DNA of 64,000 nt. Origin: a virus. The notes below the pieces were generated by a model. That model had not been told where the DNA came from. It worked only from the letters and a program-made list of their open reading frames with translations, and searched no databases. Shown here one piece after another: positions 18,442 through 54,983 of this stretch (positions are counted from its first letter, which is position 1; each line of letters opens with the position of its first letter). A program made the translations under genes and the position numbers. The stretch lies in the UHGV virus genome UHGV-1493261. One strand, 5' to 3'.

Positions 18442-18449
18442 TAAACAAA

Positions 18450-18478
18450 CCCCGCTTCGGCGGGGTTTTAAATTTTTT
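18450..18478 (+). terminator. Rho-independent terminator
   Basis: CCCCGC-TTCG-GCGGGG followed by a T-rich run. Confidence 0.6.
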
Positions 18479-26633: not shown

Positions 26634-26661
26634 TCGAACAGTTGTCCTTAACCCTGACAAA

Positions 26662-26688
26662 CCCCGCCAACGTGCGGGGTTTTCTTTT
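26662..26688 (+). terminator. Rho-independent terminator
   Basis: CCCCGC-CAACGT-GCGGGG followed by TTTTCTTTT. Confidence 0.6.
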
Positions 26689-34034: not shown

Positions 34035-35543
34035 ATGGCAGACATTCAGATTGTTAAGGTTAACGAAGTCCGCATGCGTTGCATCGCAGATCTTTCTATC
34101 AGGGAAGAACTTAATGACTACTTCAAATTCGAAGACCCGAACTTCGTTCCCAACCCCTTCTCTAAATGGGACGGGGTTGTCCGCCTATTTACCAAGTCAT
34201 CTGGTCTAATCGATATCGGTCTGCTGTTTGAGGTATTTAAGTTCTGTAAGAACAACGGATACACCATTGAACTGGATCCGGCACTGAAGTACATTCAGGA
34301 CATCCCAGATGAAGAAATCCGTGACTTCATCGACAGTCTGCATCCAAAGATCCGCACCGAAAATCACGAATATATCGATGCCGAGACTCGTGACTACCAG
34401 TACGACACCATTGCCAAGGCTATGCGTCAAACCAGATGCGTCTGTGAACTGGCTACGAGTGCCGGTAAGTCCTTTATTCTGTATGTCATGGCGCGGTACT
34501 ACAGGCGGCGCAGAGAAGCTCTCGAAAGTCCTCTGAAGACGCTTATCGTGGTGCCGTCAATCCACCTAGTCACTCAGCTGTACGACAACTTCGAAGAGTA
34601 TGCGCATGGCAGTGATTGGAAGCCCGTTGTTAACACCCAGCTGATTTTTGAGGGCGCGACAAAGGATATCAGCAAACCAATCGTCATCAGTACATGGCAA
34701 GGCATTCAAGACCAGCCGAAGGAATGGTTCCACCAGTTCGGTGATATCGTGGTGGACGAAGTGCACACCTCCAAGTCTGAGAAACTGTCTTACATCCTAA
34801 ACAACTGCATCTATGCCGACCAGCGCCTGGGGGTTACAGGTACGCTGGCGAACACCAAAGTTGCCGGGCTTCAGGTGGTGGCTCACTTCGGGGCGTACCA
34901 TAAGATCATCACGGCTCGCGACCTTATCAATCTCGGGTACGCCACTGACATCAAAGTGAAGATGATTCAGCTGAAGCACACTCCGGCGGATGCCGTTGGT
35001 CTGGACGGGGATTATTCCAAGGAAATAGAATACCTTATTACACACCAGTCCCGCAACGAACTGATCGCAAAGATGGCGCTGAATCTGAAAGGAAACGTGG
35101 CCATCATGTTCGAGCGTATTGATGGCCACATGATGGTCGTGTATGATATGCTGAGCGCAGTCAAGCCCAACGTGTTTGTCATCAACGGGGAAGTGAAGAT
35201 CGAAGACCGCCGCCACATACAGAAAGCGATGGAGGACGGAGAGGACATCACCCTGTTAGCATCATACGGAACAATGCAGCAGGGTGTGTCAATCAATAAG
35301 CTGCACCACCTTGTACTGGCACACCCGAGCAAGTCATATATCCGCGTCATACAGACATTGGGTCGTCTGATGCGTCAGCACTCCTCTAAGGACGTTGCGT
35401 GGATATGGGACTTAGTTGATGATGCATCGTATAACGCCAGCACGAACCACGCTCTTAGGCACTCTCATGAGCGTTACAAGTTTTACCTGGCAGAGCGCCA
35501 CCCTGTGGAGTTCATGAAGGTGGCGCTGGGTAATCACGATTAA
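34035..35543 (+). CDS. uvsW: UvsW-like SF2 DNA helicase
   Basis: 502 aa; TSAGKSF Walker A, VVDEVH box, LHHLVLAH, QTLGRLMRQH and WDLVDDA align closely with remembered T4 UvsW. Confidence 0.9.
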   Translation: MADIQIVKVNEVRMRCIADLSIREELNDYFKFEDPNFVPNPFSKWDGVVRLFTKSSGLIDIGLLFEVFKFCKNNGYTIELDPALKYIQDIPDEEIRDFIDSLHPKIRTENHEYIDAETRDYQYDTIAKAMRQTRCVCELATSAGKSFILYVMARYYRRRREALESPLKTLIVVPSIHLVTQLYDNFEEYAHGSDWKPVVNTQLIFEGATKDISKPIVISTWQGIQDQPKEWFHQFGDIVVDEVHTSKSEKLSYILNNCIYADQRLGVTGTLANTKVAGLQVVAHFGAYHKIITARDLINLGYATDIKVKMIQLKHTPADAVGLDGDYSKEIEYLITHQSRNELIAKMALNLKGNVAIMFERIDGHMMVVYDMLSAVKPNVFVINGEVKIEDRRHIQKAMEDGEDITLLASYGTMQQGVSINKLHHLVLAHPSKSYIRVIQTLGRLMRQHSSKDVAWIWDLVDDASYNASTNHALRHSHERYKFYLAERHPVEFMKVALGNHD

Positions 35544-35911
35544 TCTTGATTCACATAGGCGGGGGTGGCCTCGCCTTCATCAGATACTACGCCGAACAAT
35601 TTGTCCAGAGAAGCCAGACATTGTGAGTTCAGGTGTTCACTGATCGTATCCTTCAGCATTTGTTCACTACCCAATTTGAATGGCAGAACCTTCGCTTCGA
35701 TGCCGTTTTCAAACGTCACAACGCCGACATACAGACCAACTTTCAGGCCTGTCATCAAGCCAAGGGGGACAAATCGCGGTTCCGATGGTAAGTTCTTGTC
35801 TGACGCCAGCTGTGTCAGATAAACTGGGGTGCTTGTGACAAATTGCCCTGCGGTGAGGATGGCGTCTGGCTTACTGCATCCGACCGCATATAATCCTACG
35901 AACTGTTTCAT
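35540..35911 (-). CDS. Hypothetical protein (123 aa), possible lipoprotein
   Basis: ATG with GAGAG Shine-Dalgarno; N-terminus MKQFVGLYAVGC is lipobox-like; convergent 4-bp overlap with uvsW. Confidence 0.5.
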   Translation of the reverse strand: MKQFVGLYAVGCSKPDAILTAGQFVTSTPVYLTQLASDKNLPSEPRFVPLGLMTGLKVGLYVGVVTFENGIEAKVLPFKLGSEQMLKDTISEHLNSQCLASLDKLFGVVSDEGEATPAYVNQD

Positions 35912-36006
35912 ATATTACTCTCGTGTGTTGGTTAACATGACATACATATTATTTCGCGTGCATGTTTAGACCAAATAAATTAATTTTGCTGTTGAATAAA
36001 AACTGC

Positions 36007-36036
36007 TTTCTTGTTGAACAATGGCGTGGTATTATA
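36007..36036 (+). promoter_or_regulatory. Extended -10 promoter candidate (TGgTATTAT)
   Basis: TG at 36027-36028 then TATTAT at 36030-36035 in an AT-rich divergent intergenic region. Confidence 0.3.
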
Positions 36037-36102
36037 CGAGTTGTGAGCGTTAGCGAACAACGAGTATTTGTTTTATGAGCGAAGCGAATAGGATTAATAA
36101 AG

Positions 36103-36140
36103 ATTATTATCTTTAATAAAGGTTATTATCTTTAATAAAG
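36103..36140. repeat. Two tandem 19-bp direct repeats (iteron-like)
   Basis: ATTATTATCTTTAATAAAG / GTTATTATCTTTAATAAAG; each unit contains the inverted half-sites TTATTA..TAATAA. Confidence 0.6.
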
Positions 36141-36143
36141 TCC

Positions 36144-36164
36144 ATAAATGCCGAAGGCATTTAT
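36144..36164. promoter_or_regulatory. Perfect palindrome ATAAATGCC-GAA-GGCATTTAT
   Basis: 9-bp arms, directly after the iteron-like repeats, upstream of the replication cluster. Confidence 0.5.
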
Positions 36165-36272
36165 TATAACGCGTAGCGCAATTTGCCACTTGTTCTATAA
36201 GCAAAACACAGCGATACTAGATTGCGTCAAACATGACTTGAATCCCCCACTATATTTTGAGGATACATACAA

Positions 36273-36941
36273 ATGCAAGAGATCACTCTCTCCGAACGTA
36301 CACTTCAGTTGCTGGCCAACTTTGAGACCATCAACCCATCTATCGTTCTGACACCGGGCAAGATGCTGCGCAGTATTAATGATTCTTCTACTGTGATCGC
36401 CGTGGCGCAGATCGAAGAAGACTTCCCGTTTGAGTTCCCGATTCTGGACCTGACCAAACTTCTGGCCATCCAGCGCCTACCTTCCTTCAAAGGTGCCAAA
36501 GCCGAATTTCATCAGGACTACATCCTGTTGAAAGGTGAAAGCTCTCAACTGCAGTTCTGGCGCTCCGCCAAAGAACTGACTGTGGTCCCGGCCGACACCA
36601 TCGAACTGCCTTCCGTCGACTTTGAAGCGATCATCACTCCAGAGAAGATGAAAGAACTGACCCGCGCCTGTTCTACCCTCGGACACAAGACTGTGCGCCT
36701 GGTTGCTCAGGGTGGCAAAACACGCCTGGTTGCAACCACCACTACCCTAGACAACTCCAACAACTACACTGTTGAGCTGGGCGAAACCGCACTGCCGGAC
36801 TTCGTAATGCCGCTGGATGTTGCCAACCTGAAAATGATCGAAGGCAACTACACTCTGCGTGCATGTGCTGATCTACAGATGGTGAACTTCCAATCATCCG
36901 ACGCGACGATCAATTACTTCGTCGGCGCACAGATTGAGTAA
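36273..36941 (+). CDS. gp45: Sliding clamp (gp45-like)
   Basis: 222 aa; N-terminus LSERTLQLLANFETINPSIVL parallels remembered T4 gp45 LSKDTTALLKNFATINSGIML; followed by the clamp loader genes. Confidence 0.85.
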   Translation: MQEITLSERTLQLLANFETINPSIVLTPGKMLRSINDSSTVIAVAQIEEDFPFEFPILDLTKLLAIQRLPSFKGAKAEFHQDYILLKGESSQLQFWRSAKELTVVPADTIELPSVDFEAIITPEKMKELTRACSTLGHKTVRLVAQGGKTRLVATTTTLDNSNNYTVELGETALPDFVMPLDVANLKMIEGNYTLRACADLQMVNFQSSDATINYFVGAQIE

Positions 36942-41086: not shown

Positions 41087-41145
41087 CTTACTTTGTGAGT
41101 TAATAAAGTATATTATAACAGGAACTTTCATTTGGAGTTCCTGTT

Positions 41146-42075
41146 ATGTTTTACGAATTATTGATTTCTAAAGGCGGTAAACCGCATTTTATCAAGAAGT
41201 ATTTGAGGATGATTCAATCTTTCAAATATTCTGATGGTGACTACACTGAATTACACCACATCCTTCCCAAGAGCATGTTCCCTGAATATTCTAAAGATAA
41301 GATCAATTTGGCAAGACTTACTGGCAGGCAACATTATCTTGCCCATGTGTGTTTGGCCTTGGCTTTCCCGAATTCTGATATGGTATATGCTGTTATTTTG
41401 ATGAGCCGTGGGGGTAGGTATACACCAACGGGTATAAAATTTAATTCTCACCTTTACGAAAAGTTAAGGAAAGAATTTGGACAAAGAATATCCAAACTCA
41501 CAAAGGGTGTCTCTAAATGCGTCGGGGCAAACAACCCAATGTATGGGAGAAGAGGAAAGAATAATCCCCAATATAGATATAAGAGAACTCCAGAGCAAGT
41601 CAAGAAAATTACCAAAGGATTGATGAAAATCCATGAAAGGATGGCTTCTGATCCTGAATATAAAAGGCGGGTTTTAGAGAAACGCCGCGCCAACATGGAT
41701 TTAGAACAATTTTCTGAACGTGCCAGGAAAGCTAAACTTGGGGAACTTAATCCAAATCATGGCAAAGATATTACCAACACGTTTACCCCTGAACAACGAC
41801 AGAAACAAATAGAAGGTATTAGAAAAGCCCATTTATCAAAAATGCCCTGGGAGAAACCGCGTTGGTCTGATGAAAAGGACATGTATTGGGCGAAAGCTGA
41901 TAAATTCCTTGAAGCAATGAAAACAATGAAAAGAGCGGAAGCCCTCATGCATGTGTACGGAACAAAGGATTTGAAGGCTTTTAATGCGACAAACAGCATT
42001 ATCGAACGTTTCAATAGAGGGTGGGAACCTTTGAAATGTCCTAAATGGACAGAACGATACGGTTCTTCTGAATAA
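41146..42075 (+). CDS. HNH homing endonuclease with NUMOD3-like motifs
   Basis: TELHHILPKSMFPEY .. NLARLTGRQHYLAHV HNH core; NPMYGRRGKNNP and GELNPNHGKD NUMOD3-like; AT-rich coding sequence; hairpin CAGGAACT..AGTTCCTG immediately upstream. Confidence 0.8.
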   Translation: MFYELLISKGGKPHFIKKYLRMIQSFKYSDGDYTELHHILPKSMFPEYSKDKINLARLTGRQHYLAHVCLALAFPNSDMVYAVILMSRGGRYTPTGIKFNSHLYEKLRKEFGQRISKLTKGVSKCVGANNPMYGRRGKNNPQYRYKRTPEQVKKITKGLMKIHERMASDPEYKRRVLEKRRANMDLEQFSERARKAKLGELNPNHGKDITNTFTPEQRQKQIEGIRKAHLSKMPWEKPRWSDEKDMYWAKADKFLEAMKTMKRAEALMHVYGTKDLKAFNATNSIIERFNRGWEPLKCPKWTERYGSSE

Positions 42076-54903: not shown

Positions 54904-54954
54904 TTCTATCTGACGCGCGGCCAGGCTCTGCAATCAGGGCATGGCAAAAGAGAA

Positions 54955-54983
54955 AGCCGGAGTACAATGCTCCGGCTTTTTCG
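54955..54983 (+). terminator. Rho-independent terminator
   Basis: AGCCGGAG-tacaatg-CTCCGGCT followed by TTTTT. Confidence 0.65.

Follow-up and report, generated by a model that had tools for sequence, protein, structure and literature searches.

The two tandem 19-bp repeats and the perfect palindrome found ahead of the sliding-clamp gene gp45 in the window (the whole stretch of 64,000 nucleotides of viral DNA that was analysed) form the downstream part of a conserved non-coding module, in which a promoter-like motif is followed by small hairpins with covarying stems. Neither the repeats nor the palindrome is an unusual kind of feature, but the module to which they belong has not been described previously. 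By itself the repeat amounts to a common length polymorphism between strains, and the palindrome to a weak hairpin of terminator-like form. Their value lies in the context that they expose, namely a conserved, covarying module placed before the clamp/clamp-loader cluster and before the baseplate genes 5 and 6. We favor, tentatively and with a little less than even confidence, the view that a short non-coding transcription unit ends here, with the repeat-bearing hairpin (HP3) as its variable hairpin and the palindrome (HP4) as the hairpin that marks its boundary or terminates it.

The window belongs to an Agtrevirus-like phage of the family Ackermannviridae. The 1.6 kb around the repeats is 98.8% identical to Salmonella phage vB_CECAV_050, with an identity of 91-97% to other Aglimvirinae. 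According to the list of open reading frames, the intergenic gap spans 35912-36272 and is flanked by a minus-strand ORF of 123 amino acid residues (ORF123) and by gp45. Its GC content is 0.32-0.35, compared with the window mean of 0.49, and the segment 36088-36167, with 21% GC, is the second most AT-rich 80 bp in the window. Rightward lies a T4-like cluster that contains gp45, the clamp loader and RegA, while leftward ORF123 is followed by uvsW and then uvsY. The gp45 protein gives a weak match to Pfam gp45-slide_C and is annotated as "sliding clamp" in relatives, and a RegA family match is found further downstream. The small ORFs inside the intergenic region are chance frames only, and none of them is conserved. 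The full intergenic region is matched in 274 phage records, 271 of which cover at least 80% of its length. The features of the region are as follows.

35540-35911, minus strand: ORF123, the lone divergent gene (phrog_4255)
35974-35946, minus strand: ORF123 promoter-like site, TTGGTC (35974-35969), 17 nt, TAATAT (35951-35946)
35996-36035, plus strand: module promoter-like motif, consisting of the A-tract AATAAAAACTG, a -35 element TTTCTT (36007-36012), 17 nt and a TG-extended -10 element TATTAT (36030-36035)
36037-36064, plus strand: HP1, a GUUA-looped hairpin in which the tandem G·A step occurs twice, topped by GCGTTAGC (36047-36054) and found by exact motif search
36075-36089, plus strand: HP2, ATGAGC-GAA-GCGAAT, with GCGAAGC at 36079-36085 and the same tandem G·A step as HP1
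36091-36143, plus strand: HP3, an AU-rich hairpin that holds the 19-bp tandem units and is closed by GGAUU/AGUCC, defined from the repeats, the relatives and folding
36144-36164, no strand assigned: HP4, the perfect palindrome ATAAATGCC-GAA-GGCATTTAT, a 9+3+9 inverted repeat forming a terminator-shaped boundary hairpin
36170-36178, plus strand: mini-hairpin CGC-GUA-GCG, with GCGTAGC at 36171-36177, inside a conserved CGCGCG block
36190-36218, plus strand: gp45 promoter-like site, TTGTTC, 17 nt, GATACT
36273-36941, plus strand: gp45 sliding clamp, the first gene of the 45-44-62-regA cluster, from the ORF list

The anatomy given in the preliminary description of this DNA is retained with small adjustments. 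It had placed the elements in an AT-rich divergent gap of about 360 bp between a minus-strand gene and gp45, and the measured gap is 361 bp with the low GC content stated above. It had also reported two tandem 19-bp repeats with inverted half-sites and a perfect 21-bp palindrome. Both are present; the palindrome has 9-bp arms, and the repeat array is slightly longer than was thought, with 2.5 copies over 36094-36140.

The AT-richest stretch of the window as a whole is located elsewhere, at 41087-42067 (approximately 27% GC). It contains an ORF of 309 amino acid residues (41146-42075) for which no Pfam match was found, and it is without a counterpart in the closest relative, PQ306799.1. This stretch looks like an insertion.

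The geometry of the module promoter-like motif (TAnTAT with 17-nt spacing) is kept in five genera and in a paralogous locus of the same genome, locus 2, described below. In phage Kevin the motif takes the near-consensus form TTGGAC-17-TAGTAT. The motif is common to loci 1 and 2 and is present at module loci only. It did not pass a generic sigma-70 scan, and from its geometry and conservation we infer that it may act as a promoter. On the other side of the module, the gp45 promoter-like site also failed the generic scan, while its elements CTTGTTCTATA and GCGATACTA are kept across genera. TTGTTC-17-GATACT would be the promoter of gp45 itself.

The pairs of HP1 run in the order C-G, G·A, A·G, five Watson-Crick pairs, G·A, A·G, G-C and C-G, ending in the GUUA loop. 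In the tabulated variants the top pair is C:G, U:A or A:U, and the length of the lower stem is 5, 6 or 8 bp. In HP2 the flanking pair alternates between U:A and C:G, pair 55:82 is altered on both sides, and the loop is GAA, GUA, AAA or UUCA or is replaced by an 18-nt stem extension. HP1 and HP2 were compared by means of a regex-parsed table and a pair count on HP2 together with HPa and HPb, two further hairpins of the paralogous loci, since MAFFT misplaced the stems of variable length. For HPa, HPb and HP2, 97.7% of the cells are paired and five pairs are changed on both sides, and the observed covariation score was obtained in none of 500 shuffles. Every wobble pair is a G·U on the sense strand, and therefore the sense strand is the folding strand. 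Downstream of the palindrome, several genera have a CGCGCG(C)GAG block at both locus 1 and locus 2.

In the IMG/VR contigs of Ackermannviridae, each genome has two occurrences of the HP1 pattern. Three related loci are found in the close relative PQ306799.1, and only the first of them falls in the window.

Locus 1, PQ306799.1 89487-89847: upstream of gp45
Locus 2, PQ306799.1 131873-132238: upstream of a gp6-like baseplate wedge gene, with the extra hairpins HPa and HPb between HP1 and HP2
Locus 3, PQ306799.1 45499-45861: upstream of a gp5-like hub/lysozyme gene, with HPa, HPb, HP2 and an A-rich tail and without HP1

The HP2 of locus 3 is identical to that of locus 1, and locus 3 ends in the terminal hairpin GGAAGC-AGA-GCTTCC. 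Loci 2 and 3 are kept in approximately 270 Ackermannviridae records, together with their extra covarying hairpins HPa (GCC-UCCAU-GGC) and HPb, and the module is present in three copies in every enterobacterial Ackermannviridae genome examined. The divergent ORFs of loci 1 and 2 were compared and have no homology. It may be added that the HPa loop of locus 2, CCUCCAU, is anti-Shine-Dalgarno-like; the gp6-like gene downstream has the complement, AUGGAG, in its ribosome-binding region. This match is imperfect in Taipeivirus.

The module is absent upstream of the gp45 homologue in a more distant Vibrio phage, and in 596 Gb of prokaryotic (bacterial and archaeal) genomes a single exact match to the HP1 pattern was obtained, which equals the chance expectation. 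This lone match, in the alphaproteobacterial MAG CAWHUO010000014.1, has a GGCC loop and lies in a GC-rich context. A search of loci 1 and 2 against Rfam at permissive thresholds gave nothing credible (the best hit, Gut-1, scored 22 bits against a threshold of 50), and ARAGORN found no tRNA or tmRNA. In the literature on Ackermannviridae transcripts and origins, only the in-silico promoter predictions for LIMEstone1 were found, and the terms promoter, transcription, origin of replication, non-coding and intergenic are all absent from a 2024 review of the family.

It is important to compare the individual blocks of the region with those of Vi01. The sequence identity is 89% for the promoter block, 88% for HP1-HP2, 95% for the palindrome and 90% for 36165-36272, while for the flanking genes it is only 77% (gp45 coding sequence) and 69% (ORF123). 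The non-coding blocks are thus better conserved than the genes around them, with the exception of the repeat block, which at 71% is the least conserved block.

The two 19-bp units, ATTATTATCTTTAATAAAG (36103-36121) and GTTATTATCTTTAATAAAG (36122-36140), differ by one A/G substitution, and each carries the inverted half-sites TTATTA/TAATAA. The 9-bp sequence TTAATAAAG is found three times at a spacing of 19 bp, at 36094, 36113 and 36132, which accounts for the 2.5 copies. The array is the top-scoring tandem repeat of the window (TRF score 87), and three matches to the unit were seen in none of 100 shuffles. Neither the unit nor its 13-bp core recurs elsewhere in the 64-kb window. The number of units is one in Ag3, LIMEstone1 and AV101, two in the window, in vB_CECAV_050 and in one IMG/VR genome, and three in Escherichia phage A221; these phages are at least 93% identical. 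If the half unit is counted, the array has 2.5 copies here and 1.5, 2.5 or 3.5 in close relatives. Of the records compared by span length, seven equal the window, one exceeds it by approximately 20 bp and the others fall 17-22 bp short of it; most Aglimvirinae records have the span length of a single unit. Different small tandem duplications are found in the same AT-rich segment of other genera, TATTTGAG twice in IME250 and CTTAATTTAAG twice in phiEa2809. The repeat sequence is replaced in Kuttervirus, Taipeivirus, Miltonvirus and Nezavisimistyvirus and is not conserved beyond the Aglimvirinae.

The unit itself is quasi-palindromic (TTAATAAAGAT / ATCTTTAATAA) and is bracketed by the 9-bp direct repeats TTAATAAAG. 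A quasi-palindrome between short direct repeats is a classic substrate for slippage. The arrangement of the unit therefore indicates that it was duplicated by replication slippage in this lineage. With one, two or three units the RNA folds into a single nested hairpin that has the same basal helix each time and stacks on HP4. The fold energies, with HP4 included, are -17.4, -20.7 and -29.4 kcal/mol, respectively, and none of 200 shuffles folded as well. Because all three versions give one nested hairpin, an added unit lengthens this hairpin and does not create an independent site.

These results bear on the proposal that the 19-bp units are iterons or operators and that the palindrome is the site of a dimeric protein, an initiator or a transcription factor, acting in replication or divergent transcription. 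Such an arrangement is suggested by the regular spacing of the direct repeats, by their internal dyad symmetry, by their position beside a perfect and highly conserved palindrome in a divergent promoter region, and by the precedent of T4 oriE, which has 12-nt iterons of still unknown role (PMC3016281). However, most relatives have one unit only and the number changes among nearly identical phages, the repeat sequence is confined to one subfamily, and no second copy of either motif occurs in the 64 kb. The spacer of the palindrome is 3 nt in the Aglimvirinae but 4 nt in Kuttervirus, between identical arms, and no initiator or HTH protein could be identified among the genes nearby. We consider this proposal very improbable. 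An iteron-type origin, in which a fixed and conserved number of repeats (usually at least 3-4) accompanies a cognate Rep gene, is not supported, as the number of units is variable and the flanking genes are ORF123 and gp45. The palindromic operator of a dimeric regulator is not supported either, since neither fixed spacing nor recurrence at co-regulated promoters was found.

The preliminary description had read the two elements as a binding array for a dimeric protein, such as an origin or a transcription-factor site. This reading is supported in part, in that the elements are non-random, are located in a strongly conserved, regulatory intergenic region beside the replication genes, and may still have a function of the origin type; the array itself is not supported, in view of the variable unit number (1-3), the 71% identity of the repeat to Vi01, the spacer of 3 or 4 nt, the uniqueness of both motifs and the absence of a DNA-binding fold match for ORF123. 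Conservation in related genomes, which that description had proposed as a check, divides the two elements, the palindrome being conserved at 95-100% and the repeat block being the least conserved and present in one to three copies.

The divergent neighbor ORF123 was considered as a possible initiator or regulator. Its homologues are confined to the Ackermannviridae. The protein has no Pfam match and no sequence match in the PDB, and its AF2 model (pLDDT 79) gave no Foldseek match at E ≤ 0.001 and thus no match to a PDB fold. On these grounds a role of this kind was rejected. Invariant sequences are found at its N-terminus (MKQFVGLYAVG) and at its C-terminus (GEATPAYVNQD), and the protein also contains an SLDKLFG motif. 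We take the SLDKLFG motif to be similar to the sliding-clamp interaction motif of T4, which is of note in a gene beside gp45. In the promoter-like site of ORF123, GTTTAGACCAA and the position of the -10 element are kept across genera, and TTGGTC-17-TAATAT would serve this gene. With the module promoter-like motif it makes up a pair of back-to-back promoter-like sites on the left of the region.

The palindrome HP4 behaves differently from the repeats. Perfect hairpins with arms of at least 9 bp give 15 matches (approximately 11 distinct) in the window, compared with 1.7 ± 1.3 in shuffles, and the folding energy of HP4 is -8.2 kcal/mol (z about -4). No further copy of the palindrome occurs in the 64-kb window, even when three mismatches are allowed. 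The sequence is invariant in the Aglimvirinae. In Kuttervirus the arms are identical and the loop is GTCA (4 nt) in place of GAA (3 nt). Because a dimeric binder would be intolerant of such a change in spacing whereas a hairpin loop tolerates it, HP4 is better regarded as a hairpin than as a dimer site. Miltonvirus, Nezavisimistyvirus and Taipeivirus lack HP4 or have another sequence in its place, which in Taipeivirus is a different AT-rich palindrome. In locus 3 the analogous hairpin shows a compensatory change of A:U to U:A, GGAAGC/GCTTCC becoming GGATGC/GCATCC in phage May.

HP4 has the A-tract/stem/T-tract shape of the terminators of this phage, with a weak GC core. Its 9-bp stem contains only three G:C pairs, and its plus-strand tail, UAUAACG, is without a proper U-tract. 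The terminator scan accepted only the minus-strand version of the hairpin, both in the window and in Vi01, as it did for the analogous hairpin of locus 3, and in loci 1 and 3 the sense strand upstream of the hairpin is A-rich. Nearly identical perfect hairpins of the form AAACCCCGC-loop-GCGGGGTTT are found at 362-383, 18447-18468 and 26659-26682, and also at 184-205 and 54954-54978. Apparently these are the standard bidirectional terminators of the phage.

The strand preference of the scan raises the alternative that HP4 works on the opposite strand only. In this case HP4 and the T-rich complement of HP3 would form an intrinsic terminator that stops leftward transcripts antisense to gp45, the terminator would shield the module and the ORF123 promoter, and expansion of the repeat would only extend the T-rich tail. 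The minus-strand result of the scan and the A-rich sense strand upstream of HP4 are in agreement with this possibility, and T4 offers a known case of early transcription antisense to late genes, its oriE primer RNA being complementary to the transcript of gene 5. However, no minus-strand gene or promoter is evident for several kb to the right of 36164, the stem is weak in G:C pairs and in folding energy, and the closure of HP3 by a basal helix stacked on HP4 is left unexplained. This alternative appears improbable to us.

The palindrome was also considered as a late promoter of the T4 type and rejected, since its arm CCATAAATGCC differs from CTAAATAYC at two positions and lies 129 nt from the ATG of gp45. 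The sequence CTAAATAYC itself occurs 30-45 nt upstream of start codons at 642, 5694, 12205, 16497, 20793, 24334, 30806 and 34003 on the plus strand, including that of uvsW. It is probably the late-promoter consensus of this phage, a variant of the T4 sequence TATAAATA.

The anatomy, the pattern of conservation, the variation in copy number, the covariation of the module hairpins and the folds are observed directly, and they allow us to propose the following arrangement, in which the promoter activity, the transcript ends and the termination are inferred from sequence. The non-coding unit would lie between the promoter of ORF123 and that of gp45, and would consist, in order, of the promoter-like motif (-10 at 36030-36035), HP1, HP2, the AU-rich HP3 and the palindrome HP4, with HP3 and HP4 as its downstream end. 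The 19-bp duplication would have arisen by replication slippage, and the extra copy would lengthen HP3 and be tolerated, without constituting a counted binding array. HP4, a selected hairpin, most likely forms a boundary that leaks and may work in both directions. For plus-strand RNA, HP4 would terminate a module transcript of approximately 105-145 nt, depending on the number of units, or protect its 3' end, while on the minus strand it would stop antisense transcription. It would also separate the module from the gp45 mRNA, which would start approximately 60 nt further on.

Several observations count against this transcription unit. Its putative promoter fails the sigma-70 scan and has a motif confined to module loci, HP4 is without a proper plus-strand U-tract, and HP4 is missing or replaced in three genera. 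The -10 element of locus 1 abuts HP1, and consequently a normal start site would remove the lower stem of HP1. In addition, the GNA and GNNA loops fit the rules for DNA mini-hairpins as well as those for RNA.

An alternative is that the three-copy module is a replication origin of the Ackermannviridae, of the T4 oriF/oriG type, in which a promoter fires into an AT-rich unwinding element, here the HP3/HP4 segment. The transcript would form a persistent R-loop that primes the leading strand, and the conserved hairpins would form either in the pre-primer RNA or on the non-template strand that is displaced. We regard this alternative as unlikely on balance, though deserving serious attention. If the module is an origin, the part played by the repeats would be that of an AT-rich unwinding element rather than that of iterons. 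They would be merely easily melted DNA, so that their number could drift, and the length of the element would differ between strains.

The minimal origins of T4 consist of a promoter with a sigma-70-type -10 element and an A+T-rich DUE, the sequence of which can be exchanged (PMC3016281). An exchangeable DUE fits a segment that is AT-rich throughout the relatives, is not conserved in sequence and tolerates duplications, and the 80 bp at 36088-36167 resembles the AT-rich element of oriF/oriG-type origins in that its sequence varies while its AT-richness is retained. Loci 1 and 2 are the two AT-richest 200-bp stretches in the genome of the close relative, locus 1 being the richest, and locus 2 lies at the minimum of the cumulative GC skew. 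Each genome has three copies of the module, placed where transcription diverges locally. In the annotation of T4, oriF is at uvsY beside uvsW and oriE is within gene 5, while the modules here are near uvsW and upstream of the homologues of genes 5 and 6. The top of HP1 and the core of HP2, GCGTTAGC and GCGAAGC, are the DNA mini-hairpin motifs described for St-1/alpha3 and related phages, where they have been reported at origins that depend on primase (PMC13037366). Wobbles of the G·U type only would fit a displaced DNA strand equally well.

However, the AT-rich tract is just approximately 20-30 nt in loci 2 and 3, and T4 origins do not need conserved hairpins. The GC skew in this genome follows the orientation of the genes and is therefore confounded as an indicator of an origin, and the positional parallels with T4 are loose. 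An R-loop origin of the T4 kind, in which the pre-primer RNA is structured or the displaced strand forms mini-hairpins like those at primase-dependent origins of single-stranded DNA phages, and in which the unwinding element is prone to slippage, is doubtful at present. If it were confirmed, the interest of the module would rise.

Phages of the Ackermannviridae are widely used in biocontrol and detection, and the module offers concrete candidates for their regulatory RNAs or origins. Strains can also be told apart conveniently by their number of 19-bp units.

The arrangement can be compared with several known systems. The likeness to the iterons of T4 oriE and of plasmids lies in evenly spaced, AT-rich direct repeats near replication genes. 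However, the units here number 1.5-3.5, are polymorphic, are absent outside one subfamily and have no evident initiator gene beside them, and they are quasi-palindromic and fold into one hairpin. The PeSL cassettes of T4-type phages combine a terminator stem-loop with a sigma-70-like early promoter, and occur as many repeats of conserved sequence in hyperplastic regions (PMC2839356, PMC4122927). In the present case HP4 is likewise followed, approximately 25 nt on, by a sigma-70-like promoter-like site for the next gene. However, HP4 is located between core genes, its stem is much weaker than that of a normal terminator, and a PeSL cassette was rejected because the palindrome is unique in the window and not one of many copies. 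HP4 also resembles the phage's own AAACCCCGC-loop-GCGGGGTTT terminators, with which it shares the symmetric order of A-tract, stem, short loop and T-tract and a loop of the C-GAA-G type, but its GC core is 4 bp (3 G:C) compared with about 6 bp, and its plus-strand U-tract is too poor for the scan.

The module resembles oriF/oriG of T4 in that a putative promoter with a sigma-70-type -10 element is followed within approximately 100 bp by a very AT-rich segment of non-conserved sequence, as well as in the presence of several copies per genome, in local transcriptional divergence and in a position near uvsW/uvsY. The T4 origins, however, have MotA-dependent promoters and no conserved hairpins, while here covarying hairpins lie between the promoter-like motif and the AT tract. 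Two of the three module copies have short AT tracts only. The origins of G4, St-1 and alpha3 belong to single-stranded DNA genomes and are recognized by the host primase, whereas the present motifs are in double-stranded DNA downstream of a promoter-like site, where a role at the RNA level is equally possible. Nevertheless, the mini-hairpins of these phages, GCGNAGC/GCGNNAGC, are represented here by the exact motifs GCGTTAGC, GCGAAGC and GCGTAGC, which flank the repeats and the palindrome, and the loop of HP4 is C-GAA-G.
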